Source: a virus
Lineage: Duplodnaviria; Heunggongvirae; Uroviricota; Caudoviricetes
Strand: one strand, 5' to 3'
Length of the DNA stretch: 20,393 nt
IMG/VR virus record: IMGVR_UViG_2609459790_000003
Part shown: piece by piece, positions 889 through 19,133 of the stretch
Layout of the letters: every line of letters begins with the position of its first letter
Numbering within the stretch: the first letter of the stretch is position 1
Program-made: the position numbers and the translations under genes
The notes under the pieces: generated by a model
What the model was told of the DNA's origin: nothing
The model's input: only the letters and a program-made list of their open reading frames with translations
Database searches by the model: none

Positions 889-1625
889 GTGAGTATCTCA
901 CGTTCTCAGTGTGCTGGGCAAAAAAACATCGCAAAATCTGGAGCAGGCACGAAAAACAGAATTGAAAGTTGCGGGGAAGAAAAATGCCGCTCTGTTTGAG
1001 TGGGCGGCATTTGTGAAGGCTGAAAAGTAAGAATTGGCGTTACGAGTTATTCAATATTGAATCTGTTTGTAGAGTGTTGGCTTCAATGCCGCATTGTAGA
1101 TGGTTTCTTTCTAATGCGGTTTTTGATTATGTACACCCTTATGTACATAGTTTTTTCTGGTGCTATCCGCGCAATTGAAGGTGTGGGCATAATTTTGCCT
1201 CTATTGTGATAATCACAATTCTTCTTGTGTTGTGCTCATCATCCAGTTCATCGAGTTTCTACCAAGAGCGTTTTGCGCGCTGGCTGAAGCTATTTTGGTT
1301 GCTTTGGCCTGAAGCCATTATCTACATCCCTCATGATTGAGGTGTGTAATCATGTTCAGGCTTGTTGTCCTGTGCGCGCGTATTGCTCGTGAAATTGCTG
1401 TACACAATTAAGCTCTGCGATATTAGGTTTTATAAGGTTCTCGTATCCTTGTGAGGCGGCAGAATCAGTAAATACCTGATATTTCCGCCAACGAAAAATT
1501 GCGTTGGCTGGCAGAGTGCAAATTTGCACGATGACCTAACCAATTGATTCTTTTGGAAACCTCAATTTGAGGAAGCCGGATAACACCATTTTTATAGCTC
1601 CGATCCCTTCAAAGTGAGGGGTAAT

Positions 1626-1661
1626 TTGCCAAAACAGAGAGAGCATTACTGTCTCTGGCAA
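1626..1661 (-). terminator. weak candidate intrinsic terminator overlapping the stop of the 95-aa ORF
   Basis: On the minus strand CAGAGA / UCUCUG form a 6-bp stem with an 11-nt loop, followed by UUUU; the stem is short. Confidence 0.25.
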
Positions 1662-1933
1662 TCTTTATCGCGATAACGCCTGAAGTACCCTCTCGCTTCC
1701 TCATCCATACCAAGAGCCGAATGAGTTCGCTTAACTGCCTGTCTTAAATCTCCGAATCTGTCTGTAGTTGCTGGTGGGCGTGCCGCCCTACGGATACATT
1801 CAGAGTGTCTGTTTGCTGCATGTTCACGTTCTTTATTGCCATCTGCCAGCGTCATGACTTCTGCCCATCGTGTGGCAGCTCTCCGGCATAGCCTTTTTGA
1901 CTCCAGCTCTTCAGCTTTCCTGTCACTTATCAT
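1646..1933 (-). CDS. hypothetical basic 95-aa protein
   Basis: ATG start with GAGAGG about 7 nt upstream; Arg/Glu-rich helical composition; lies 36 bp from iteron array A. No recognisable domain. Confidence 0.45.
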   Translation of the reverse strand: MISDRKAEELESKRLCRRAATRWAEVMTLADGNKEREHAANRHSECIRRAARPPATTDRFGDLRQAVKRTHSALGMDEEARGYFRRYRDKDCQRQ

Positions 1934-1968: not shown

Positions 1969-2090
1969 TGTTGGTTCAGTTGGTTCAGTTGGTTCAATTT
2001 GTAAAGAGTATTGTTTTTAAAAGGATTATTCGCAAAAAGTGAACCAACACACCCCATTTTTGAACCAACAAAAAGAGGCCGTGAACCAAC
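1969..2090. repeat. iteron array A: six copies of the 9-mer GTTGGTTCA / TGAACCAAC
   Basis: Three tandem GTTGGTTCA at 1970-1996, an AT-rich spacer, then three TGAACCAAC at 2040, 2061 and 2082 (21-bp phasing). Positions 1969-2017 are a perfect reverse complement of 10572-10620. Confidence 0.85.
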
Positions 2091-2164
2091 ACGCCGTTTA
2101 AAAACCGCTAATTATGAGGGACATCCACCAACACAGGGCTTGTCTAGTGCTAGTTAGGTGCTGC

Positions 2165-2383
2165 TCACCGCGCACGGAGCGGCGCTGGTTTGCTCCAGCG
2201 ATATGCGGGGCTGGTCATCATTTCGCGGTACCGCCTGGCTATTACAGGGCCCTCTGCCAGCTGGCGCCTTAATTCCCGCAGTTCTGCCGGGCTGAGCTGG
2301 TAGCCGTCATGCTCCAGCTTGGCAATGGTCAGCAGCTCGATTTCTCGTGGTGTCATGGATTCCCCTCTGATGGTGATCGGCAT
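2165..2383 (-). CDS. hypothetical small protein
   Basis: Track ORF of 72 aa; the internal ATG at 2354-2356 (MTPREIELL..., 63 aa) has a GAGGGG Shine-Dalgarno and is the more likely start. Divergent from the AlpA-like gene at 2609. Confidence 0.4.
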   Translation of the reverse strand: MPITIRGESMTPREIELLTIAKLEHDGYQLSPAELRELRRQLAEGPVIARRYREMMTSPAYRWSKPAPLRAR

Positions 2384-2524
2384 TATATTGCCAGCCAGGG
2401 TGATTCTTCACTGGCCGGAGCCGTTGTGCGTGAAGTCTATGCGTGAACTCCATATGCTATGTGTTAAGTTACAGCTCAAAATGTCCTGTTCCGGTGGTAA
2501 CTTTTTTGGTAAACAGCGTTTTGG

Positions 2525-2559
2525 TGGATACCAACATGGATACCTCGCTTTTGGATACC
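2525..2559 (+). promoter_or_regulatory. three direct repeats of TGGATACC upstream of the AlpA-like gene
   Basis: TGGATACC at 2525, 2537 and 2552, 50-85 bp upstream of the ATG at 2609; candidate regulator or recombinase binding sites in a divergent promoter region. Confidence 0.3.
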
Positions 2560-2608
2560 GCACAAAGCCAGATTGTCACTATGCTTAATCTAAAGCAGAG
2601 GAGCCTCT

Positions 2609-2794
2609 ATGCGCCTTATCAAATTAAGCGAAGTCATGCTCAGAACGGGCTTCAAGAAAACGGCAATCTACTCATGGGTTAAGACGGGCACGTTTCCACA
2701 GCCAGTTAAAATTGGTAGATCAGCTAGATGGTCGCTTGAGGAGGTTGAAGCTTGGATCCAGAACAAACTTGATTCGCGGGCTGGCAACCAATGA
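2609..2794 (+). CDS. AlpA-family (excisionase-like HTH) regulator
   Basis: MRLIKLSEVMLRTGFKKTAIYSWVKTGTFPQPVKIGRSARWSLEEVEAWIQ matches the AlpA/Vis HTH pattern; AGGAG Shine-Dalgarno 7 nt upstream. Confidence 0.8.
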   Translation: MRLIKLSEVMLRTGFKKTAIYSWVKTGTFPQPVKIGRSARWSLEEVEAWIQNKLDSRAGNQ

Positions 2795-3383
2795 TTAGCT
2801 TTAATATCGAGTGGTGGATAGTCCATGGACAAGCTGATGGGCGCACTCGACGAAAACGATGCGCCAGGCGGACTGTGTCGCTCATAAACCGGGAGTTGGC
2901 CAGAGGACTTAGTTGTCCTTTGCAATTCTGCAGGTTCGCACGTGAAAGTAGCCAAAACCCTGCGAACCTGAGTGCAAACCTGCAACTGCGAACCACTGAG
3001 GTGGCCTCTCATAGCTGGTGGTCATACTGGATATTAATCAGGCCTGCCACAGGCATAACAATCCATAACAGACGCATCGCACTAACAATTACTAATAGGT
3101 CCGCTCGCAACACTAATTTTGACTAAGCCTGAACGCAATGCTCAGAAAGAACGAAGAATGGAATGAATCGTACCAGCATGTTGCTCCATGATTTTTACGT
3201 TCAAGACAGTTGCTTAATCTCGCCTCGCAATTCAGCCCCCTTGCCGCGATCTTGCCGTTATCGAGAAGTCTTTCTCCTTTCGGTTAATGCTATCGGTCTT
3301 CATATTACCAGCAGCATACGCCATCCGATTATTTCGATGCTACGCGCGCGTACTTGTCGCAAAATACCAGGCAAAGGCCAGAT

Positions 3384-3698
3384 TCAGAACGTCGTGATAA
3401 CCACCAGCACAACATGAGAGGTCATGTAACGCGATTTATCACACCAGATACATGTATTGGTGTACCCGCATAAAACATCGTCATAGCGCGTCCTGTGCGC
3501 ATATACGCCGATAATCAACACATCACCACCACTCTGTCTCATGTAGAGAACAGTTTTATGGTATCCCCCCGCCATCGTGTGCATACTGGTCGGACGTAGT
3601 TGCAAAATTTTTTGCAACTGATACCCCTCGCGCGCGTACTGGTCACGAAATTGGTGTTTTGCTGTGGCAGTGATATCAGAAAAATCTTCCTGTTTCAC
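3384..3698 (-). CDS. possible RelE/ParE-fold toxin-like ORF, probably degenerate
   Basis: The core GYHKTVLYMRQSGGDVLIIGVYAHRTRY resembles the RelE/ParE C-terminal motif. The ORF starts with GTG, has no Shine-Dalgarno, has no partner antitoxin ORF, and carries a 27-aa C-terminal extension. Confidence 0.3.
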   Translation of the reverse strand: MKQEDFSDITATAKHQFRDQYAREGYQLQKILQLRPTSMHTMAGGYHKTVLYMRQSGGDVLIIGVYAHRTRYDDVLCGYTNTCIWCDKSRYMTSHVVLVVITTF

Positions 3699-3825
3699 AT
3701 AAAGCGGATATGCGCGTACTGTAACGGCCCCATCAACTGGGAGCGGATTTGAAATCCCGCCCCGAATGTGTAGGCAATGTCACTTAACGTTTGTCGCATA
3801 CCTTCCAGAAAAAGCGATTCATGAA

Positions 3826-3857
3826 TAATAGGGGCATGAATGCCCGGCGTACCGGGC
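3826..3857 (-). terminator. candidate terminator downstream of the lipoprotein gene
   Basis: Overlapping short GC hairpins GGGCA-TGAA-TGCCC and CCCGG-CGTA-CCGGG just 3' of the lipoprotein stop on the minus strand, followed by a U-rich tract. Confidence 0.3.
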
Positions 3858-3864
3858 TTATTAG

Positions 3865-4563
3865 TTAATTTGGTGCTTTAGGGTCAACATTAAAAGTTAT
3901 ATCACCTTCTGTATTTTTCCCGGCATAGCTAGCGGCTATTCTCGCCAACCCTTTGTAATCAGCAATTCCATCAGACTGTTGCGAGACGACTGAGCTACCA
4001 ACTTTCCATAACATATTAATCTGCCTATTATTGAGATAAGCCTTGGCATCAAACGACTGGAGTATCACCCCTGCGCCGTAGAACGTGTCCGTCACAGTTG
4101 TGTTATACGCGCCAGTAATTCCATAAGTAGGCGTATAAACTGTTGTTGCCGTTCCAGTGGTATTAGCTGTACCGTAGCCACCACCATAACTATTGAACGT
4201 GGTGTTCGAGTTTCCGTACGTTGTTGCTGAGCTCACACCAGTTTGCCCGTATATTGGGATGGTTACATTACGAGTATTTGAAATGGCCCCGCTTCTCAAA
4301 AAGTTCAAGAGAATTACCTGGTCAGCCAATTTTTCATCTTTAACTTGTATATATCCTTGGCTTGATAAACTGGCGGCTACTACCGTAGCTATTTGAGTGT
4401 ATTCAATCTGTTTGGTGTTCCAAAGTTCTTGGCTTGCGGGGATGATCAAGAACTTCTTACCGACAGATTGCCCGGAGGATAAAGCATTGACCGTTACTAA
4501 CGGTTTTTGTACGCATCCAGCCAATAATGACAGGGATAATATTAAAAGAAGATTTTTAATCAT
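3865..4563 (-). CDS. lipoprotein, Thr/Gly/Tyr-rich (232 aa)
   Basis: Signal peptide with lipobox LLAGC; AGGTGA Shine-Dalgarno 7 nt upstream of the ATG; low-complexity G/T/Y/N repeats; gene is about 42% GC, lower than its neighbours. Confidence 0.85.
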   Translation of the reverse strand: MIKNLLLILSLSLLAGCVQKPLVTVNALSSGQSVGKKFLIIPASQELWNTKQIEYTQIATVVAASLSSQGYIQVKDEKLADQVILLNFLRSGAISNTRNVTIPIYGQTGVSSATTYGNSNTTFNSYGGGYGTANTTGTATTVYTPTYGITGAYNTTVTDTFYGAGVILQSFDAKAYLNNRQINMLWKVGSSVVSQQSDGIADYKGLARIAASYAGKNTEGDITFNVDPKAPN

Positions 4564-4713
4564 GACAATCTCACCTAAGAATTGCGTGGTTATAAATTAT
4601 CATCACTGTAAGCGAATGTAAGCCACAGGCTCGTAATGTGATATGGAATTTTTATAGTTGGCTCAATATCAGTATGCCGTCCTTGGCTATTATGGTTTTG
4701 TTAGTTAGAGCGT

Positions 4714-7440
4714 CTATTCCCATTCGCTAACATCTTTCATGCCACTGAGGGTAGCTACAATCCCGGCCCTTGTCAGTTTCACGAATTCTTCAGCCCCAAC
4801 GGCATCACGAATTGCTTTCATGGCAATTTTATTGGCCGAAAATCGTTTCTCTGCTGCGGCGATCGCTGCTGGTGATGCCCCTGCGCGCACTGCTTTTGTA
4901 GCTTCCTGAACGGCTTTCTCTATCGCATATCGACCACTTCTTGTCGCCCCAATCTTAGCCACAGTATTTCTCAGTGCGCCACCAGCAACCAAACCACTAA
5001 TCGAACCAATTACACCACCGCCAAAGCCTCCAGCGATCGCACCTGACTGTTGAACTCCGTTCATAATCACACCGACGATCTTTGGAAGGCCTGAATCGAG
5101 CGTTTTGAGAGCCTCAGTTGTTCTTCCCGTGCGCTCTACGTATCGCTGCGGTCTGGTGCTGGCTTTAGCGAGTACACCGAACTCTTTCATCATTCTACCG
5201 AGATCTGGCGCATGACGACTGATGGCGTTTACATTCTGCTGGGTCATGAGCTTGGCAAAATACTGGATACCAGACTCTTCACCGATTCCTCCCTTCTCTC
5301 CCTGCGCCACAGCATGCTGAAGAATAGATGCTATTGCTGGTTGGCGTTCTGCTTCCGGCAGCGCGGAGATAAGGCGGTGAAAAGCTCCCGTTCCAGTATT
5401 TGCGGATGCCTTAAGCGTATCGGCACCTTTTCTTACCATAGCGTCTGATGCGAGATCTCGACCAAAAACAGATTCGGCATTTTGTTTGGCGATAATGTAA
5501 CTTTTAGAGAGATCGTTAGCTTTCTGCCATTCTGTGAGGAAGTTTCCTTTTTCAGCCATGATGCGCATGTCATCAGTGATAGCTCTGCGCATTTCTCCGG
5601 CAATCCGGGCGGCATTGGCCTTACCTGCCCGGGTGTTTGCTTGTTCAGCATCAGCAAACTTAGCACGCCATGCCTTCATCCCGTCGAAGGTTATGCCGCC
5701 ACCTTGGTTGTTGGCAGCCTGAAACTGTTTCATCTCCGGGCTGAGTGGAACATTGGCTGCTTTTTCTGCTTGGACGACAGCCATCCCATTACTCATTTTC
5801 ATCCTTTCGCGTGGCATCGTGCTTCGCAGTTCTGCCCATGCCATATTCTCTGCTGTTTTCATATCACTGAGGCTCGCGATGATGCGCTCTTTAATTGCTG
5901 CGCTTTTTTCTGATGCGCTTCCAGACTCAGCACCGAAATCAGACAACTGCTTATTCAACTTTGAGGATATTTCATTGAAGGCCGTAAGGTGAGCATCCTG
6001 AACATTCCCAGGAGTTGATGCCAGAACACCTTCTGCTTGGGCAATTCCACGACTACCTGAGCGCATTCCAGGCGTCAGGGTGTTGATATTAATACCAGTG
6101 ATTTTCGCCGCCTTAGCGACATCATCTCTGACGTTTGATGCCTGCGATGCGATATGCTCTCGGCCTACGGCAGAACGCGCTGCTTTCGATACATCATTGG
6201 CGGTTTCCAGAGTATTTGCTGCCCCTAACACATGGCCTGATTGATTTGTATTACTCCGCAATACATCTCGCATTACGTCACTGGCTGTCTGTCCGCTCTT
6301 TATTAAAGCGCGTGCTCCTAGCGATCCTGCTAGGCCAATACCTGTCTCTTTTGCTAGGTCTTCTGGGCTGATCTGCCCGTTCTTTTGGGCGTTCACCAAT
6401 GTACCTGGCAGGTTTTCTGCCAACATACTAGCCACCTTTGTGGCCGCACGTTCAGCACGTGGAGCGTTGGCAACTGAAGAAGCTGCGGTAGCTGCCTTTC
6501 CTGCACCTAATCCTGTAATAAGGTAAGGTGCTAGCTGCTCACCAGCCTGCGCGTATGGATCTGTAGGTTGGTCTACTGGGCGAAAGACAGGTGATATGGG
6601 CGTGTATGTGCCATCACCCACACCAAGCTTCTGAGCTGCCCATGCTCCGGCTGATTGCGCCGCATTGACTACCCCCACGCCTGCGTCCATTACATCAAAC
6701 GGTATATTAGCAATCCCTCTGGCCATCTGCTCTGGCGCAGCTTTCAGTCCTGGCGAAAGATATTCCATCTCAGGATTAAGGTTAGACTTGGCTACTTGCT
6801 GCTGCGGTTCCCCGGCATTTTCATCGGCGAGAAACTGAGCTCTTTTCTGCTCCCATGAACTGGCTGTTGGTAGTCCTGCTTCTATGTTCTTAAATTGCTG
6901 ACGTTTTGCTTCCCATGCAGAAATATCTCCCACCTGAGAGATTTCTTTATCAAGCTCTGAGTAGTCAGGCTGCTGAAGATTGCGATGTTGACTGGTTTGT
7001 GCAAACTGCAAGATTTCACTGTCATCAGGGATTATTCCGGCATCTGCAAATTTACTTACGTAATTAGCCGTTTCATCTGGCAGTGTAGATTTACCGTTTC
7101 TGACGGCATTAATACGAGCATAGCCAGAATTATACCCAGCCAATGCCATACCTATATCACCAAATCGCTTCATTCCTTTATTGAGATGGTTTGCTGCGAT
7201 ATCCATTTGCTTTTCAAATGGCAGTGAGCGCGGATCAGTTCCACGATAACCAGCATCACTCATTACTGAGGGCATCAGTTGAGCAAATCCTCTAGCTCCT
7301 TTCGGTGACTCGGCACTTCCGTTACCACTAGATTCATTGCCAACTAATGTTTCCATCGTCCCTGATGGGAAACCATATTTTTCATCGAGATGACGGGAAT
7401 AGGCTTTCTGTTTTTCTGTCAGTTGTGCCATCATTGCCAT
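4714..7440 (-). CDS. 908-aa protein with N-terminal lytic transglycosylase (SLT) domain and long Ala/Gly/Gln-rich body
   Basis: N-terminus carries SLT motifs (ESSGN catalytic Glu-Ser, GFAQLMP, AGYNSGYARI). The remainder is helical and low-complexity with a Gly/Ala-rich C-terminus. Its start is adjacent to the stop of the upstream gene. Confidence 0.9.
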   Translation of the reverse strand: MAMMAQLTEKQKAYSRHLDEKYGFPSGTMETLVGNESSGNGSAESPKGARGFAQLMPSVMSDAGYRGTDPRSLPFEKQMDIAANHLNKGMKRFGDIGMALAGYNSGYARINAVRNGKSTLPDETANYVSKFADAGIIPDDSEILQFAQTSQHRNLQQPDYSELDKEISQVGDISAWEAKRQQFKNIEAGLPTASSWEQKRAQFLADENAGEPQQQVAKSNLNPEMEYLSPGLKAAPEQMARGIANIPFDVMDAGVGVVNAAQSAGAWAAQKLGVGDGTYTPISPVFRPVDQPTDPYAQAGEQLAPYLITGLGAGKAATAASSVANAPRAERAATKVASMLAENLPGTLVNAQKNGQISPEDLAKETGIGLAGSLGARALIKSGQTASDVMRDVLRSNTNQSGHVLGAANTLETANDVSKAARSAVGREHIASQASNVRDDVAKAAKITGININTLTPGMRSGSRGIAQAEGVLASTPGNVQDAHLTAFNEISSKLNKQLSDFGAESGSASEKSAAIKERIIASLSDMKTAENMAWAELRSTMPRERMKMSNGMAVVQAEKAANVPLSPEMKQFQAANNQGGGITFDGMKAWRAKFADAEQANTRAGKANAARIAGEMRRAITDDMRIMAEKGNFLTEWQKANDLSKSYIIAKQNAESVFGRDLASDAMVRKGADTLKASANTGTGAFHRLISALPEAERQPAIASILQHAVAQGEKGGIGEESGIQYFAKLMTQQNVNAISRHAPDLGRMMKEFGVLAKASTRPQRYVERTGRTTEALKTLDSGLPKIVGVIMNGVQQSGAIAGGFGGGVIGSISGLVAGGALRNTVAKIGATRSGRYAIEKAVQEATKAVRAGASPAAIAAAEKRFSANKIAMKAIRDAVGAEEFVKLTRAGIVATLSGMKDVSEWE

Positions 7441-8750
7441 CCCTTAAGTTTTGCCTGATAGTAACTTTCCGGCAGATAGCCATGTGCGGTCACATAATCC
7501 TTAACCAGTGAAGGATCCTGCAACAGCATTTTGGTATCAGTTTCTTCGTCCTTTGATTTGGTTACAGGAATACCGAGCCCGGCAATCTGTCGTTTCTGCA
7601 TTCGAATAATTACGTCCTGCGCTTTATTCAACTCTCGCAAAAATGCCTCATTGCTGGTTGCTGACTTAATGCCATTTTGAGATTGCATAAGGGCAGCCCT
7701 TTCCCCTTCGGTTGGGTTAGAGCCAAAAGTCCCTTTGAGGCTAGGCAGAATAACCTTTAGGTTGTATTCATCAGCTTTGGCGCGTAGGCTTCGTGTGTCT
7801 TCTGCTACATCAGGAAGGAATCCAAACCCCAGCGTCAGGGGGTTATAGTTCTGCGAGCGGGTAACGGCCGAAGGATGTTTCCCTACAATTCCCGCCAGTT
7901 CATGACCCACTTCAAGCGCAGAGTTCAAGGAGTCGATGTTACCTGTAACAGTATTAATTTTATCGTTCATCTTCTCCACTTTCGCCTGCTGTACCTTGCT
8001 CAGTTCAGCATTGAGCTTGTCTCTCTCGATGTCATTTTGAGCACGTCCAAGTCGTGCTTTCAGAACCATTTCTCTCGTGCGTAGTTGGTTATCGGATAGG
8101 ACTTTGAACTGCTCCATATCGAGACGCCGATTACCCTGTTCCGCATTAACCTGAGCATTATATGCAGATGTATCTGCGTTCTGCTGTGCAATGCTCTGCC
8201 CTTGCTGCTTCTCTTGAACACTAAAGTAACTATTTGGATCAGCATGGAGGTGGATGAGGTCAGTGATTCTGTTGAATTCCTGTGGGTCATTCTGCCAAGA
8301 CTGATAAACCTCTTCAGCAGGAAGACCAAATCGCTGTAATACTGGATTTGCCTGCTGAATGGCCTTCTGCATGGTCAGTGGATCTCCAGTTTGTGACGCA
8401 AGACGCAGATTCATGGCAGCGTCAGCGGTCTGTCGATTTTGCTCAGCATCAATGAATCCCATCTGTTTTTGAGAATCAGCCATAAACTGGGGATACTGGG
8501 CCATTAACTTCTGCACGCCAACACGATCATTATTAGCTACCGCACTACCCAACCGTGCCTGATATTCTTTTAGCTGCTGGGAAATTTGCGCCTGCTGATT
8601 AATCTCAGCAACGCCTCTTAGCCCCTGTAGCGCCATTAAACCTACGTTTGGCTGCTGCTGATACTGCACAGGCTGAGGAACGGAAGAACGAGGAGCATTA
8701 TCATTTTGCGGTGCCATGCTAGGCAGCCCGCCAAGTTGCCATGTCGTCAT
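7431..8750 (-). CDS. 439-aa Gln-rich coiled-coil protein
   Basis: ATG at 8748-8750 overlaps the upstream stop (TAATG); Q-rich helical composition; no catalytic motif seen. Confidence 0.85.
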   Translation of the reverse strand: MTTWQLGGLPSMAPQNDNAPRSSVPQPVQYQQQPNVGLMALQGLRGVAEINQQAQISQQLKEYQARLGSAVANNDRVGVQKLMAQYPQFMADSQKQMGFIDAEQNRQTADAAMNLRLASQTGDPLTMQKAIQQANPVLQRFGLPAEEVYQSWQNDPQEFNRITDLIHLHADPNSYFSVQEKQQGQSIAQQNADTSAYNAQVNAEQGNRRLDMEQFKVLSDNQLRTREMVLKARLGRAQNDIERDKLNAELSKVQQAKVEKMNDKINTVTGNIDSLNSALEVGHELAGIVGKHPSAVTRSQNYNPLTLGFGFLPDVAEDTRSLRAKADEYNLKVILPSLKGTFGSNPTEGERAALMQSQNGIKSATSNEAFLRELNKAQDVIIRMQKRQIAGLGIPVTKSKDEETDTKMLLQDPSLVKDYVTAHGYLPESYYQAKLKGWQ

Positions 8751-9427
8751 TAGAATCCAAGCCCCCCAACAAGACCAATAAGCCCACCACCAATAGCCCC
8801 GGCGACATTACCTATACCCGGAACAACGGAACCAAGTTGCGCACCCGCTAAAGCGCCTGATGCCGCCCCACCAATACCACGCGCAAGACTGGATGGCTGC
8901 TGCGCCTGACCTGCACGAATAGCGCCAAGCCCCTGCAAGAGTTGTCCGGTATTATTGGCGTAGTTTTGCCCTGCTGTTGCCTGCCCTGATGCCGCATTCA
9001 TCCCGACATTTAGCAGGTTTCCATAATTTTGCATTTGCCCACTAAGCCAATTGTTATAAAGCATGGGCGCAATGGAAGATAACTGGTTACTGGTAGCTGT
9101 TGAGCCAAGCCCCCCGGTAGCTTCTGCTGAGACAAGGTTCTGATAACGGGCCTGATCTGCCTGTGTTTTATATAAACCAGAACCAAAGAAATCATTCGCG
9201 GCTTTATTCTGCCCTTCCAGAGTCATCAGTCCTTGCAGTTGTTGTAAAGCAGGCAATCCGACTTCTGCATACGGCTTGAGATTATTCATCACCGTATTCC
9301 ACTGCTCGCGCTGCAAATCAATTGCCTGCTGCTGGGCCTTCGCCTGGGCTTTAGAGGCACCACCATCACCGCCTTTTTCGTATACGGCACGATTGAGATG
9401 TTTATGAGCTATATGGGTAATTAACAT
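8750..9427 (-). CDS. 225-aa protein with C-terminal glycine-zipper hydrophobic segment
   Basis: C-terminus GIGGAASGALAGAQLGSVVPGIGNVAGAIGGGLIGLVGGLGF; ATG overlaps the stop of the 153-aa gene. Confidence 0.85.
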   Translation of the reverse strand: MLITHIAHKHLNRAVYEKGGDGGASKAQAKAQQQAIDLQREQWNTVMNNLKPYAEVGLPALQQLQGLMTLEGQNKAANDFFGSGLYKTQADQARYQNLVSAEATGGLGSTATSNQLSSIAPMLYNNWLSGQMQNYGNLLNVGMNAASGQATAGQNYANNTGQLLQGLGAIRAGQAQQPSSLARGIGGAASGALAGAQLGSVVPGIGNVAGAIGGGLIGLVGGLGF

Positions 9428-9882
9428 TCGCTGAGTTCCTTATATTGTTGCCGTGTTAACTGATAAAGCGTTACGCCGACGGGTTTACCACATCTGATAT
9501 ATGCATCGGCCAGGTGACCAACACGGGTAGCGCCAAGCAAACGGATAATTGCCCGTCCGTATTTCGTGGTGTCAGGAACCATGGTGATGCTGTTAAGGAA
9601 TGGTGAGTTTTCGAGAAGCCATTTGCAGAACAATCGATGCCCTTGCAGTGCATATTCACCACGGAATCCGGGGTCGTACACCGCATGGCATTCAACAATG
9701 CTATGCCAGAAGTTACGCACTTCATGAACGCCTGTCAGCACTAATCCTTCGTAGATGCCGAGATATACCGCATCAGGCTTGATGTAGTACGTGTGCCCCG
9801 GCTCAACAATATTTTCGGTATTGCCAGGCTCGTTAAGAAAGGCCTGTAATCGCACCGGGTTATCAATAAATTTTAGTTCCAT
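9421..9882 (-). CDS. 153-aa protein, first large gene of the module
   Basis: ATG at 9880-9882, 16 nt after the stop of the small upstream ORF; compact globular composition; no motif recognised. Confidence 0.8.
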   Translation of the reverse strand: MELKFIDNPVRLQAFLNEPGNTENIVEPGHTYYIKPDAVYLGIYEGLVLTGVHEVRNFWHSIVECHAVYDPGFRGEYALQGHRLFCKWLLENSPFLNSITMVPDTTKYGRAIIRLLGATRVGHLADAYIRCGKPVGVTLYQLTRQQYKELSEC

Positions 9883-9898
9883 GCGGTGCCATCCGTTT

Positions 9899-10060
9899 TC
9901 ACATACAGCCTGCCAGCGCCTTATCTATTAACCCTCGTGCAATTTCATGCAGAGTTGGCGCTACTCCAATTCCTGATTTTTTACGCTGCTCTTCCTGAAT
10001 TTTCTTTATCGCTTCCATTTGCTTCTCACTTATCAATACCGGCTTTACTGAAATAGCCAT
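9899..10060 (-). CDS. 53-aa putative ribbon-helix-helix DNA-binding protein
   Basis: Below the ORF-track length cutoff. ATG at 10058-10060 with AAGGGGG 5 nt upstream; MAISVKPVLISEKQMEAIKKIQEEQRKKSGIGVAPTLHEIARGLIDKALAGCM has a strand, helix, G-x-T, helix layout. Confidence 0.45.
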   Translation of the reverse strand: MAISVKPVLISEKQMEAIKKIQEEQRKKSGIGVAPTLHEIARGLIDKALAGCM

Positions 10061-10075
10061 AACGCCCCCTTAGAA

Positions 10076-10099
10076 CTGTATAAAACAACAGTTATTATA
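10076..10099 (-). promoter_or_regulatory. candidate promoter (-10 TATAAT) with overlapping LexA-like box
   Basis: Minus-strand TATAAT at 10094-10099; immediately downstream lies aaCTGTataaaacaACAGtt (10074-10093), CTGT-N8-ACAG, closely resembling the dinD box. No good -35 hexamer. Confidence 0.4.
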
Positions 10100-10154
10100 G
10101 TTTCGCAAATCGCAATATTCATCATCGTAATTGCAAAATATGAAACAAATAGCA

Positions 10155-10188
10155 CAAAAAAATGCCACCGCTCAGTAGCTGGTGGCAT
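10155..10188 (-). terminator. rho-independent terminator closing the primase operon
   Basis: On the minus strand AUGCCACC / GGUGGCAU form an 8-bp stem with an 11-nt loop, followed by UUUUUUU. Confidence 0.5.
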
Positions 10189-10381
10189 CGTTCTGTGTGT
10201 CAGGTTTTGACAGGTTTTTTATGGACTCTAAAAACTATATTTATGGTGTCGCATTACTCTTCACGGCAGGCGCTTTTCAGTTCTGCCCTTGCTTCTGGCT
10301 CCATTGGTAATTTGATTCGCGATCAGCTATGCGGATGGTTTGCTGAACAGGCATAACAACTTCTCAGGGGCTGTTTTCTGA

Positions 10382-10458
10382 ACTACGAAAATTTCGTAGT
10401 GCTCACTTTCAAAAACGTCACGCCCTTGTACACAGGATTTTACGAAAGTCTCGTAAAA
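10382..10458. promoter_or_regulatory. two palindromes sharing a TACGAAA half-site
   Basis: ACTACGAAAATTTCGTAGT (10382-10400) and TTTTACGAAAGTCTCGTAAAA (10438-10458), between the terminator and iteron array B. Confidence 0.3.
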
Positions 10459-10508
10459 CACTCTCTGATGCCAGCCAGGTGTTGTGCGCATCAATTCAGT
10501 CACATTGT

Positions 10509-10620
10509 GTTGGTTCAAAATACCGTGTTGTTGGTTCAGTGTTGGTTCAATAAAAAGAATAAAATCATTATAAAACAATACTCTTTACAAATTGAACCAA
10601 CTGAACCAACTGAACCAACA
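10509..10620. repeat. iteron array B: six copies of GTTGGTTCA / TGAACCAAC
   Basis: GTTGGTTCA at 10509, 10530 and 10541, then three tandem TGAACCAAC at 10593-10619. Inverted copy of array A; lies 25 bp beyond the primase stop codon. Confidence 0.85.
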
Positions 10621-10644
10621 CCTTTTCTACGCACATGAAGAAGC

Positions 10645-13404
10645 TCATTCTTCAGATGAGTTATAATCTCCTGGCTGGTAATTGAGTACATAAACGTTTA
10701 TTTGTCGTCCCTGAATACGTGGTGATTTTCTTTGGTATCCACGACCGCTGTTTGGTGGGGTTAGCATCCCGGCTTTTTTCAACACTTCAGCAAACTGTTT
10801 TGCGTTGAAACCACATGCGATCTCCTTTTCAAATGTGGCCGGGAATGTGTAGAAAATCATTGGGCTTTCGTCATGTTCTCCACGCTGACGGTATCCGGCT
10901 AAATCTTTGATGGGCAAATCTGCCGGGCTGTATGGAAATGGTGCAAAACGGCTAAGCCCATAGGCATTAAGAAATGCCTCCGTTTGTTCAATAATCTGCT
11001 GATGTTCTTTGTTACCTGTGCCGAACTCGCGCAACCATGCGTTATAGCTGTGCTGTATCGCATCACGGCATGTCTGAGCATCCCAGCCTGTTACAACCTC
11101 GCCTAACAGCAATGCGGCCTCCAGAATGGCAAATCGCGCGGCTACACGGTGAACCTGCTCACCATAATCGGATGGGATCAGACTTCTCCATCTGCTTTCG
11201 CAGTCACGAACAGTTTTAATTGCCTGTTGCTGGTGGTCTGCCAGCCATTTAATCCACTCACGCCCGGCTGCGCCGTGGTGATGCTGGTAAGCGTCTTTCA
11301 GTGCGTCTGCGTGCTGTTTTCCGTTCTGGTAATCGTGAAAGCGTACTGCTTTACTCAACGGAATATTCAGCAGTCGCACCAGTTGCCCGGCTTTGGTTTT
11401 TCGCCCGGAAGTAGCGATAAATGTTTCTAAATCCATTTCTCCGGTGCTGATTGCCACTGTACGCCAGCGTTTTAGATCCCGGTTTCCACCATCTTTAGCG
11501 CCTTGCAGTTTCCCTACACCGTTAAATAACGCATAGGCAGACTGTGAAACGCTGACAGGATCTGCGCCCTGACCAACTTCATCAAGCGGCATTAGTCCGT
11601 CATTGTGGGCGGCAGCTTCATTTGCCAGCCCCAGCGCGGTTCCGTACCACGTCAGCCGCAGTAAATCAGGGTTGCCGTATAAGCTGCTCGCCACGTTTGC
11701 CGTGGTGGTCTTACCTGCGCTCGACTGCTCATAGAAATGAATGCCGAACCCGTCAGCGCCCACCAGCCCAATCAATGGCGCTGCCAGTGCTGCGCCGATC
11801 CCGGTCATCATTGAATAGTTACCAAAGGCCAGACGCGCCACGCTATCACGCCAGCTTTTCGCGCTCCCTGAGATAGTATATCCGGCTGCGGCTGAGCTTC
11901 TCCCGCTGAACAGCACAGGATTTTCAGGTGTTCCGATGATTTCCCCATCAGGCATGATGTACGCTCCGCATTGCCAGCCAGTGGCATGAGCAACACGCCA
12001 CAATTCACGAGAGCCACTGCGTTGTAGCCAGTCTGCCAGTATTGCTCTGAGGCTGCTTTTGGTCGTGACATTTACCCCACCAGCTTTAAGTGTGCGCCAT
12101 CCTTCACGTTCACCAATATCAGCCAGTGGAATGGCAGCGGTTGTCGGCGTTTCAGAACCAAACGACAGCCAGCGAAGAATGAGATACTGGTCTTTATCGT
12201 CTCTGCCAGTACCGATAACGCTTAACGGAGAACATAACCAGCTTTCGTTATTGATGATTTCTCCACTCTGGCTGTCAGCTCTCGGAGATACCCAATAAAT
12301 ACCATCCTCGCGGCTTTCTATTCTTGGTTTCAGTGGGTCGGTATCCATAACCTTAAAATCGCTTCCTTCAATGGTCTGTGGCTCCTGTTTCACGCCATTA
12401 CCCTGTGGTTGGTACATTGATTTATTGAACGCTTCTGTAGCGCATTTAATGCCGTGTTTTTGGTGGTAATCATTCCAGTCGGCTTTGTGATCTGTCGGGG
12501 GTAATGCCACCCATCCAGAAACAGATAAAGCTGCTTTTTCTGCTGCTATTCTCCCCGTGTTTTGTCTTCCTTCGCTGTGGTCGTTATCCGCAGCAATGAT
12601 GATTTGTGCTGAAGGAAATTTATCCCGCAGTACCTGGGCGACATATAACAGGTTCCCGGCATCAATCGCCGCCACTGTCAGCGCCTCTGGACGAATTAAA
12701 TGGGCAGATAATGCCGTTGCCAGCCCTTCTGCGATTAAGATGCTCTGTGTTGTTTCTGGTGCGTTTATGGCGTGATATGCCCCTCGCTTTGCTGAACCTG
12801 TCAGGAGTCTTTTTTCACCATGTGAGGTAATAGTCTGTGCTGCTGTTACTGCGCCGGATTTATCCACCAGCGCCAGCAACAGAGATCCATCGGGCAACAC
12901 GGGGAATGTAAAATCACCTACCCCTTTCGCAACCAGATAATCAGATTTGCCGTTTACAGCCTTTCTGCGCATGTCATCAAACTGACGGGAAAACGTATCC
13001 CGTCTTTGTTGTTCGTCCTTCTCTGCCCTTTTCAGGCGCTCCTGTTCGCGTCGCTGGCGCTCGGTTTCCAGTTGTTCCCGTTTCTGGCTGGTGGCTTCTG
13101 GTGTTTCCGTTGTCCGGTAATCAATACCCAGAACATCAGCGGCAAGAAGCGCCGCCTCTGTTGTGTCGCAGTTATTTACGCGTTTAATTAAATCCAGCCC
13201 ATCACCAGCGCCGCACTGATTACAGATGAAGCTACCGCGCCCGTTGTCATCGAACCGGAATCGATCTTTACCCCCACATGCAGGGCAGGGAGCATGACGG
13301 CGTGGAGAGTCAGGGACATTTATGTTCAGGCAGCCCAGCACATGAGGCCAGTTGTTTTCAGACGCACTGATAACCTGACGGATAAGATCAATGTTTCGCA
13401 TCAC
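10645..13404 (-). CDS. bifunctional DNA primase / SF3-type helicase (P4 alpha-like)
   Basis: N-terminal zinc ribbon CPACGGKDRF...CNQCG, central primase region, C-terminal P-loop (SSAGKTT). The track start at 13404 is GTG; the ATG is the next codon (13399-13401). Confidence 0.9.
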   Translation of the reverse strand: MMRNIDLIRQVISASENNWPHVLGCLNINVPDSPRRHAPCPACGGKDRFRFDDNGRGSFICNQCGAGDGLDLIKRVNNCDTTEAALLAADVLGIDYRTTETPEATSQKREQLETERQRREQERLKRAEKDEQQRRDTFSRQFDDMRRKAVNGKSDYLVAKGVGDFTFPVLPDGSLLLALVDKSGAVTAAQTITSHGEKRLLTGSAKRGAYHAINAPETTQSILIAEGLATALSAHLIRPEALTVAAIDAGNLLYVAQVLRDKFPSAQIIIAADNDHSEGRQNTGRIAAEKAALSVSGWVALPPTDHKADWNDYHQKHGIKCATEAFNKSMYQPQGNGVKQEPQTIEGSDFKVMDTDPLKPRIESREDGIYWVSPRADSQSGEIINNESWLCSPLSVIGTGRDDKDQYLILRWLSFGSETPTTAAIPLADIGEREGWRTLKAGGVNVTTKSSLRAILADWLQRSGSRELWRVAHATGWQCGAYIMPDGEIIGTPENPVLFSGRSSAAAGYTISGSAKSWRDSVARLAFGNYSMMTGIGAALAAPLIGLVGADGFGIHFYEQSSAGKTTTANVASSLYGNPDLLRLTWYGTALGLANEAAAHNDGLMPLDEVGQGADPVSVSQSAYALFNGVGKLQGAKDGGNRDLKRWRTVAISTGEMDLETFIATSGRKTKAGQLVRLLNIPLSKAVRFHDYQNGKQHADALKDAYQHHHGAAGREWIKWLADHQQQAIKTVRDCESRWRSLIPSDYGEQVHRVAARFAILEAALLLGEVVTGWDAQTCRDAIQHSYNAWLREFGTGNKEHQQIIEQTEAFLNAYGLSRFAPFPYSPADLPIKDLAGYRQRGEHDESPMIFYTFPATFEKEIACGFNAKQFAEVLKKAGMLTPPNSGRGYQRKSPRIQGRQINVYVLNYQPGDYNSSEE

Positions 13405-15180: not shown

Positions 15181-15371
15181 TTTTCACCCCCAAGAATTAC
15201 CAGCTCGGCACGGGCATCGTTAACCAAAGATGAGCACGCTTTAATCGCATCCACGACATCAGCAGCGTCCATTTCTTCAGCCGAAAGACTGACAGCAACC
15301 AGGACAGCCGCTGCTTGCTCGATTAATTGAAGTGCGGACGTAAGTCGAGGGGCATTAATTGAGTTATTCAT
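15177..15371 (-). CDS. hypothetical small protein (64 aa)
   Basis: Track ORF starts at 15428; the ATG at 15369-15371 ([10 protein letters not shown]...) overlaps the upstream TAA in an ATGAATAA junction. Confidence 0.6.
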   Translation of the reverse strand: MNNSINAPRLTSALQLIEQAAAVLVAVSLSAEEMDAADVVDAIKACSSLVNDARAELVILGGEK

Positions 15372-15582
15372 TGGTTGCCCCCGTTTTTCCTGGCATTTCG
15401 CCACCTTCCAGCAGGAAATGAACGTCACGAACGGCGAGATCCAATATCGCGAGTAACGCCTTCAGTTTTTCGTCTCGTGAGGGAGAGTTGCTCACCAGAA
15501 TGTCATTAATCACTTCTGTCAGTGTGATGATCTGGCTTGTACGTTCGAGGGGATCCATATGCACATCGTAGGTTTTAATCAT
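15364..15582 (-). CDS. hypothetical small protein (72 aa), alternative reading of the 3' end of the long ORF
   Basis: ATG at 15580-15582 with GGAGG 7 nt upstream, overlapping the TAA of the alternate-frame 64-aa ORF (ATGATTAA). It is in frame with the 355-codon ORF, so it may instead be that ORF's C-terminus. Confidence 0.45.
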   Translation of the reverse strand: MIKTYDVHMDPLERTSQIITLTEVINDILVSNSPSRDEKLKALLAILDLAVRDVHFLLEGGEMPGKTGATNE

Positions 15583-16431
15583 GTGCCACCTCCATGCGGA
15601 TACGACCAGCAAAAAAGCAGACGTGATCGCGCACCAGAGAACGGCGAGCATCGCGTTCAGACTCGGCAGCAATATGATGAATTTTGGCGGTAATTGTCGG
15701 GCAATCGCGGCGAACTGCGGCGATAATCCAGATAAATTGCGGTTTTTGGGTAGGGGTAGTAGCCAGCATGTGGCAGCCTCCTTGTACTGGGAATTCTTCC
15801 CACCACCGGAGCTGCGAAACTCGCTGGTGGTGGACTGAACAGAGTTCGCAGTACCGGCGTACAAGGAAACCGGCCAGCCTTTCGGCTGCCCTGTCCAGCC
15901 CACCATAATTTTGCAAGCGACGCGGATTATAACCACATCACTGAAAAAAGTGTGAGTCTGGCTAACGGCACAAAAAAAGACGCTCGGCGCGTCATGTGTC
16001 GCCTCGTACATTTCCGGGCTGCGAAACCCGGCACCCGTTTTATGAGGTGCCTTATAACCATAAACCGTGTTGCCGCATAACGACAAGCTCTTTTTTATGG
16101 ACTCCGAAAACTCACTATTGGAAGCACCAGATGCACAATACATCGCGCTCATTTCGTTAACGTCGCGCGTGTGGACGAAGGTTTTTGTGGAGCCACTACG
16201 CGAGCAGAGAAAGCCATCTACGACCAGAAATTCTCTGGCGCAGCCGCTGACCCTCTCAACGCTAACACCATCGACCGTAATTTCTGACATAGTTAAGGCA
16301 TCCGCTCCTACCACCAGCAAATGATAAACTTTGCTTGCATCTGCTGTATTAATGCCTGATTTTGCTGTCATATTGCTGGATTTTGGCGACATACCAGTCA
16401 GTGAAAATATCTTCTTCTGGGCGGTTAGCAT
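15364..16431 (-). CDS. hypothetical protein; 355-codon open frame, true 3' end uncertain
   Basis: ATG at 16429-16431 with GGAGG 7 nt upstream. Both other minus-strand frames are closed by stops between 16431 and about 15940, so this frame is coding there. It stays open to 15364, but beyond about 15770 the composition suggests nested small genes or a frameshift. Confidence 0.35.
15575..15769 (-). CDS. hypothetical small protein (64 aa) in alternate frame
   Basis: ATG at 15767-15769 with AAGGAGG 7 nt upstream; protein-like composition ([22 protein letters not shown]...), whereas the long ORF's frame over the same bases is L/S/P/W-rich. Confidence 0.4.
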   Translation of the reverse strand: MLATTPTQKPQFIWIIAAVRRDCPTITAKIHHIAAESERDARRSLVRDHVCFFAGRIRMEVAHD

Positions 16432-19038: not shown

Positions 19039-19133
19039 TGCGTCACCTTTTACGCTGCGCCTTATTTTGTGATTGAGCCAGGCGGTAAGGCTTCCCGCTT
19101 TTCGCCCCGTCGAGCTAGGCTCAATCTATTCAG

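Follow-up and report, generated by a model that had tools for sequence, protein, structure and literature searches.

Inverted iteron modules on either side of the cargo genes probably form a two-module replication origin in an EcCIMP1-like phage-inducible chromosomal island

[quoted passage not shown] Both arrays are probably origin modules, at which the island's own initiator would bind and replication would fire. Array B, next to the primase-helicase gene, is likely to be the initiator-proximal module, and array A the conserved second module, of the EcCIMP1-family PICI origin. This two-module reading draws on covariation of iteron and initiator, conservation of the second module, the precedent of P4, and a 12-kb episome that lost most of its cargo and kept both modules.

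The window, the whole stretch of DNA analysed (20,393 nucleotides, IMG/VR record IMGVR_UViG_2609459790_000003), was placed by whole-window searches as an E. coli chromosomal island between the host genes dinD (1–837) and yicC. A 12-bp flanking direct repeat, a candidate att, delimits an element of ~19.3 kb. The repeated word, ATTATGTACACC, is the longest common to two 0.2–0.8 kb junction regions of locus L001, with ~0.01 expected by chance. Read in the sense of the primase, the element encodes an integrase, an alpA-type HTH protein, an AntA/B antirepressor, DUF4222, "ash" and small ORFs, followed by the primase-helicase, array B, the cargo, array A and perC. Features outside the arrays are:

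1116 to 1127, plus strand: candidate att core ATTATGTACACC; a second copy lies ~39 bp past the right end of the window
1646 to 1933, minus strand: perC-family regulator gene, immediately outside array A
2091 to 10508, minus strand: cargo segment, between array A and array B
10645 to 13404, minus strand: primase-helicase initiator, 919 aa, with zinc ribbon, TOPRIM, DUF927 and C-terminal domain (Pfam)

The order int-alpA-antirepressor-ash-TOPRIM-DUF927 primase-perC is that of EcCIMP1, a PICI of strain MP1 for which Pick, Stadel and Raivio (2025, PMC11773190) demonstrated excision, induction and transduction by the P22-like phage Kapi1. The published description of EcCIMP1 makes no mention of an origin or iterons (PMC11773190). 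Many EcCIMP1 protein accessions are identical to those of close copies of the window. Judged by this matching gene content and these common accessions, the window element is an EcCIMP1-like PICI. In EcCIMP1, too, the two arrays are present, 8.5 kb apart on either side of the same ejection-gene cargo, and together they contain 12 exact iterons. It is located at tRNA-Thr, whereas the window copy lies between dinD and yicC and has a different integrase. Sequences of this origin were found in 570 of 5,426 complete E. coli genomes (~10%).

The arrays are built from the 9-mer GTTGGTTCA, and all 12 exact copies in the window fall within them. With one mismatch allowed, 17 matches were found against 4.6 expected, a number reached in 0 of 100 shuffles. 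The components are:

1963 to 2017: left arm of the inverted repeat, perfect over 55 nt
1970 to 1996, plus strand: array A tandem block, three iterons (1970, 1979, 1988) with a 9-bp period
1997 to 2039: array A spacer, 43 bp, 77% AT, with the same conserved box as array B
2040 to 2090, minus strand: array A spaced block, iterons at 2040, 2061 and 2082 (21 + 21 bp)
10509 to 10549, plus strand: array B spaced block, iterons at 10509, 10530 and 10541, opposite to the tandem block
10550 to 10592: array B spacer, 43 bp, 86% AT
10572 to 10626: right arm of the inverted repeat, perfect over 55 nt
10593 to 10619, minus strand: array B tandem block, three head-to-tail GTTGGTTCA iterons (10593, 10602, 10611) with a 9-bp period

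Each array thus has 3 + 3 iterons in opposite orientations around a 43-bp AT-rich spacer, the layout of PICI and SaPI origins. The whole window is 52% AT, against 77% (A) and 86% (B) in the spacers. A conserved box, ATTTGTAAAGAGTATTGTTTT, adjoins the tandem block in the array B spacer, which is the presumed DNA-unwinding element. Iterons of the array B spaced block start 21 and 11 bp apart, about two helical turns and one. The array B tandem block is the first element past the primase stop codon; 25 bp separate that codon from the nearest 9-mer, and 18 bp separate it from the end of the repeat arm. Array A is not immediately 3′ of the initiator gene in the window; its tandem block lies 37–63 bp upstream of the perC start codon.

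The initial annotation had reported a 49-bp reverse complement (10572–10620 and 1969–2017), a mirror-image arrangement of the flanking 9-mers and an array B abutting the primase gene. The 49-bp match was confirmed and lies inside a longer perfect inverted repeat of 55 nt (1963–2017 and 10572–10626, 100% complementary, 8554 nt between the arms). Iteron positions and strands in A and B bear out the mirror image, and the distances from the primase stop codon the adjacency. The perfect 55-nt identity is specific to the window copy; in EcCIMP1 the arms measure 65 nt and match at 92%. Other E. coli copies have 2–4 tandem iterons, with different numbers in A and B. Such polymorphism was also seen in L001, L003, L063 and others, with 7 tandem iterons in L063, an Erwinia MAG. 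Counts change independently in A and B, which is consistent with replication slippage.

A linker motif lies past module B:

10471 to 10478, minus strand: CTGGCTGG linker motif

A search of the 400 bp past the primase stop located it in 29 of 75 loci, against 31 of 352 control windows, and its positions in relatives cluster at +150 to +195 from that stop. Two palindromes, 10383–10400 and 10440–10458, share ACGAAA / TTTCGT half-sites and are operator-like. They sit in the 450-bp gap from array B to the cargo operon and, among relatives, occur only in E. coli-type elements (L004). Weak tests for a consensus sigma-70 promoter in or beside the arrays, and for a terminator in the gap from the primase gene to array B, were both negative, and a reading of the arrays as promoters or terminators was dropped. 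A reading as RNA genes was likewise rejected; Rfam had no match in either array region and three matches elsewhere. No tRNA was detected in the window.

The gene beside array B had been called a primase. The name is correct but incomplete, the protein being a primase fused to a self-loading helicase/initiator. Over its N-terminal 360 aa the protein shares 33% identity with P4 alpha (E 2e-41; aligned residues 8–362), and its helicase and C-terminal regions gave no sequence alignment with P4 alpha. A phmmer search of the C-terminal domain against PDB sequences returned no meaningful match. An AlphaFold model of the C-terminal 279 aa was obtained at moderate confidence (pLDDT 75, 28-sequence alignment). 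Foldseek aligned it over 230 columns with SaPIbov1 Rep 8TCH (E 1.3e-5, prob 1.00); the SCCmec Cch helicase 5DGK was a further match (prob 1.00). The last ~110 residues gave weaker matches to a DNA-binding relaxosome accessory protein bound to oriT. The kinship of the initiator with Rep proteins is thus one of predicted fold.

One short segment of the C-terminal domain varies with iteron type across 31 homologues from the loci:

10702 to 10746, minus strand: candidate iteron-reading segment, residues 887–901 (GRGYQRKSPRIQGRQ)

All GTTGGTTCA elements have GRGYQRKS-PR-IxGRQ at residues 887–901. Elements with TGTTGTCTC have GRGYQGRV--R-EDGRQ, yet their neighbouring 40-aa blocks are 97–100% identical to the window protein. 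The ACGGGTTA, GTCGGTTCA, GGTCGGTTT and AGGTCGGGT elements each have their own variant of the motif. Of the computational evidence for the arrays as binding sites of the initiator, which would contact them through the iterons, this covariation is the strongest.

Relatives were scanned with one genome per species, giving 77 loci with primase homologues across Enterobacterales, of which 58 were scorable; the genomes are phylogenetically related, and locus counts do not represent independent events. Modules were called with one mismatch allowed and at least 4 matches required. Nearly all 58 relatives have module 1, with the layout of array B, just past the primase stop, at +26 to +60 bp. A second module is adjacent to the first in 28 of the 58, where the whole origin occupies ~250–300 bp, and about 260 bp in many relatives. 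In a further 13 a gap of 169 bp to 8.9 kb separates the two modules; the corresponding distance in the window is ~8.4–8.5 kb. The split distances are:

L050, 0.17 kb; L043, 0.4 kb; L063, 1.0 kb; L062, 2.1 kb; L036, 4.6 kb
L014, 5.8 kb; L039, 6.1 kb; L061, 6.7 kb; L021, 7.1 kb
L064, 7.7 kb; L056, 8.3 kb; L022, 8.7 kb; L027, 8.9 kb

No second module was seen in the remaining 17 loci (6 truncated contigs and 11 with the full 10 kb downstream), so the second module may be dispensable or further away. One iteron sequence serves both modules for every specificity, over at least 7 specificities and several genera. Spacing is mostly 11+21 in the proximal module and 21+21 in the distal one. A rule that array B is always 11+21 failed on EcCIMP1, whose array B is 21+21. 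The spacing difference between A and B suggests that the arrays are old paralogues and that neither is a recent duplicate.

Adjacent forms differ in their second module. In Rahnella L037 it is a true mirrored second AT-rich unit, with an ATTTGTAAAG...TTGTTTT box as in the window. In L005 and L009 the second module combines additional spaced iterons with a GC-rich linker and a closing inverted tandem block. Since the second spacer is GC-rich in this commonest adjacent form, the second module may bind the initiator without a second unwinding. A gene beginning MSKSLSVTFRVPAEL, ribbon-helix-helix-like, lies directly beside the distal module and is divergent in several split loci; no homologue was noticed at the corresponding position in the window. 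Its positions from the primase stop are:

L061, +6299 to 6760; L027, +8510 to 8953; L021, +6692 to 7267; L062, +1586 to 2020: MSKSLSVTFRVPAEL gene

A search of phage genomes for this origin gave one weak match (72%, Klebsiella phage), which suggests that the origin was not copied from a sequenced helper phage.

Array A could instead be a control site, for perC regulation or for copy control by handcuffing or titration, with array B as the only origin. The nearness of its tandem block to the perC start codon agrees with such a role, as does the position of perC directly past the second module in adjacent forms such as L005, where that module lacks an AT-rich spacer; iteron plasmids also have handcuffing and titration clusters. 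The place of perC is variable, however: pri-B-A-perC-cargo in L005, pri-B-perC-cargo-A in L014, L022 and L027, and pri-B-cargo-A-perC in the window. Three of these loci thus have perC past module B and not A, and many loci have no perC near either module; this variation argues against a perC-tied role of the second module. The missing sigma-70 consensus in and beside the arrays also counts against a control site, and array A of the window has the complete origin layout, including the 77% AT spacer and the conserved box. A role of array A in control alone is unlikely.

A functionless relic is a further alternative, in which array A would have been left by duplication or recombination when the ejection cassette was captured from a helper phage. 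The identical arms are as a recent duplication would give, and the cargo resembles P22-like phages at 84–89% DNA identity. A recent event cannot explain a second module in many genera with at least 7 iteron specificities, and the 21+21 spacing of A against the mostly 11+21 spacing of B is that of old paralogues. All six iterons of array A are, moreover, exact in the window, in EcCIMP1 and in the cargo-deleted 12-kb episome. A relic is accordingly considered very improbable.

The initial annotation had also raised the possibility that the arrays are ends of an invertible or mobilisable segment, recombining through the 55-nt arms or by a site-specific recombinase. The arms are perfect and long enough for RecA-dependent exchange, and the DNA between them is variable among relatives. 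An inversion junction was built by fusing the perC side of A to the interior side of B and searched in 5,426 complete genomes. It gave 0 full-length matches among the 570 E. coli carrier genomes, while the native junction was intact in 49 genomes and the perC-A junction was conserved in most of the 552 genomes with it. Neither RefSeq annotation nor Pfam revealed a recombinase, invertase or transposase in or beside the segment; the only recombinase, the element's integrase, is 8.5 kb away. The module types keep one order throughout the split relatives, and in every scorable split locus the distal module is inverted with its tandem block outermost. Modules abut without cargo in 28 relatives, and the iterons covary with a replication initiator and with no recombinase. 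Given the lack of inversion isomers, the lack of a recombinase and the adjacent forms, inversion or cassette mobility was rejected as the function, and this explanation is extremely improbable. A 2-micron-style double-rolling-circle amplification was also disfavoured, as it would leave both isomers among integrated copies.

One part of the segment idea survives: what lies between the modules is variable cargo, wholly different between relatives. Of the 5,426 complete E. coli genomes, ~550–570 preserve the primase-B and A-perC junctions, and divergence begins just inside array A. Cargo is unrelated among split loci, consisting of P22-type ejection proteins in E. coli and, elsewhere, of tape-measure-like proteins with SSB and of baseplate-like, toxin-like and defence-like genes. 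The cargo of the window includes hypothetical genes and the following:

2609 to 2794, plus strand: second alpA-like HTH gene
4714 to 9882, minus strand: full P22-type DNA-ejection set, from 9882 a gp14-like DUF2824 gene, gp7, gp20 and a gp16-like gene
9899 to 10060: small ORF

The gp16-like protein has 908 aa and an SLT lytic transglycosylase domain. Parts of the ejection genes are 84–89% identical in DNA to the P22-like phages Kapi1, Louie and 720R6, which suggests that they were acquired by recombination. Cargo genes of EcCIMP1 have been described as hypothetical or DNA-transfer genes, possibly related to packaging (PMC11773190). It is unusual for a satellite to bring its own ejection proteins.

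Several further observations concern packaging and immunity. A stretch of ~107 nt in the "ash" ORF (15364–16431) is 85–92% identical to an internal stretch of the small-terminase gene, which is gene 3 / terS of P22 and of many P22-like phages and the region of the pac site:

16177 to 16283, plus strand: terS-like fragment

This fragment could be a pac-site mimic that explains specific packaging by a P22-like helper; a P22 pac 22-mer had no match to it at up to 3 mismatches. Three Rfam matches were found:

15823 to 15910, minus strand: C4 antisense RNA (P1 c4 / P4 CI family), 81 bits, inside the "ash" ORF
15973 to 16050, minus strand: isrK, 69 bits, inside the same ORF, annotated as a 355-aa "ash family protein"
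19059 to 19125, minus strand: int-alpA RNA, 60.6 bits, between the integrase gene and the next ORF

The corresponding region of strain MP1 is annotated as an Icd-like protein and a partial ash gene. Because of this differing annotation and the RNAs inside it, the "ash" ORF may be over-called. Immunity of the element is probably RNA-based, as in P1 and P4.

Two circular records bear on replication. NZ_CP148430.1 (L084; pZ1323CEC0013_1-4) is a 12,152-bp circular E. coli record of an EcCIMP1-like element in which an ejection gene is truncated. It has lost the bulk of its cargo and retains both modules, 1.8 kb apart and with all 12 iterons exact. CP031370.2 (L085) is a 19,229-bp circular Klebsiella record with an adjacent 12-iteron origin. 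Both entries were deposited as plasmids, small, circular and non-mobilizable. They may represent satellites that were excised and then persist or are amplified as episomes, and are consistent with autonomous circular replication, though short of proof of it. In NZ_CP025840.1 (strain 214-4), the genome closest to the window, origin sequence also occurs at a second chromosomal site, making 4 places in all (~678 kb and ~1.81 Mb). One cell can therefore hold more than one element of the same iteron specificity, which raises questions of incompatibility or cross-activation.

In the mechanism proposed for the two-module origin, helper-induced activation of alpA and excision would precede the action of the initiator. 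The C-terminal domain of the primase-helicase would then bind the iterons of both modules, and the protein would melt the AT-rich spacer or spacers, load itself as hexamers and prime synthesis. The compound origin would consist of an outer tandem block, an unwinding element, inner spaced iterons and a closing inverted second tandem block. In the E. coli lineage an accessory or cargo operon lies between the halves, which would place the modules 8.5 kb apart on a 19.3-kb circle. The outward-facing tandem blocks would probably be joined by initiator-initiator contacts, with an interior of 40 bp or 9 kb looped out. Within the two-module reading, such cooperative looping and a use of the modules as independent helicase-loading sites are about equally likely. 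That the second module is conserved agrees with a need for both modules in cis, though it is no proof of one.

A more speculative proposal, offered tentatively, is that the modules are obligate long-range partners and that looping out the interior creates a protected cargo slot, which doubles as a frame for cassette exchange. Because the halves are inverted, recombination between them could not delete the cargo; because they are conserved between satellites, they could serve as portable homology flanks for swapping cargo operons. If so, ejection, tape-measure/baseplate or defence operons would be swapped to match helper phages.

The element, the PICI origin type and the bipartite precedent of P4 are already known. 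The origin of the EcCIMP1 family, a compound inverted origin enclosing an accessory operon, and the specificity segment of the initiator appear to be undescribed. The analysis locates a probable origin and names a likely iteron-reading segment for EcCIMP1-type satellites, and links PICI origins to the classical, little-understood ori/crr arrangement of P4. Natural variants with modules adjacent, 0.2 kb apart or 1–9 kb apart are available for studying distance and cooperation, and a minimal replicon is defined for satellite-based delivery vectors. For annotation, paired repeat blocks of this kind should not be read as transposon or invertron ends.

Among known origins, that of a PICI has been tested functionally in EcCICFT073 (Fillol-Salom et al. 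2018, PMC6092414). SaPI origins have 6–12 iterons immediately downstream of rep, with at least two on each side of a central AT-rich region and in opposite directions (Qiao et al. 2022, PMC9371898). The iterons are read by a winged-helix domain within the C-terminal part of SaPI Rep, and two hexamers are thought to self-load, one per side (PMC9371898). Like the PICI/SaPI origins (Ubeda et al.; PMC6092414; PMC9371898), array B lies immediately 3′ of the pri-rep gene and has opposed iterons flanking an AT-rich centre. The initiator is likewise a self-loading helicase, here fused to a primase as in SaPI5 PriRep, and its C-terminal predicted fold matches SaPIbov1 Rep. Array B shows every structural point of a SaPI origin and array A all except position, and in sequence layout each array is a complete PICI-type origin unit. 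In contrast to the single unit of PICI/SaPI origins, the EcCIMP1 family has two inverted units, up to ~9 kb apart with cargo between them, and each unit has a tight tandem block of 9-bp period on one side.

The initial annotation had suggested a bipartite origin and a comparison with P4. A bipartite origin is supported by the likeness to P4, by the two-module layout across genera and by the covariation of iteron and C-terminal motif. In the GenBank annotation of P4, crr (4291–4590) lies 46 bp past the stop codon of alpha (4636–6969), and the ori cluster (9310–9413) is 4.7 kb from crr. In each 120-bp crr unit, a pair of tandem type-1 iterons spaced by 9 bp is followed by a ~35-bp gap and inverted spaced iterons. 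P4 and the window thus both have an iteron cluster directly past the primase-helicase stop (46 bp in P4, 18–25 bp in the window), a tandem pair or trio of iterons at 9-bp spacing, a ~35–43 bp gap, inverted spaced iterons and a second cluster of the same iteron kilobases away. Their zinc-ribbon/TOPRIM primase domains are homologous (33% identity), and both are satellites with int, alpA/vis genes and a C4/CI-type RNA. They differ in the iteron, GTTGGTTCA in the window and TGTTCACC in P4. The two crr units are in direct repeat, with the partner ori upstream of the alpha operon, whereas the window arrays are inverted. The DUF927/Rep-like helicase and DNA-binding parts of the window protein have no detectable sequence similarity to alpha, and the presumed helper is P22-like here, that of P4 being P2-like.

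In P4, replication depends on the presence of ori and crr together in cis, and alpha joins the two sites in a loop. In the plasmids R6K, P1 and F, distant extra iteron clusters contact the firing origin by initiator-mediated looping or pairing, and iteron plasmids use extra clusters for handcuffing and titration. The initiators of R6K, P1 and F are of the Rep_3 type and recruit host DnaB, whereas the initiator of the window element is itself helicase and primase.
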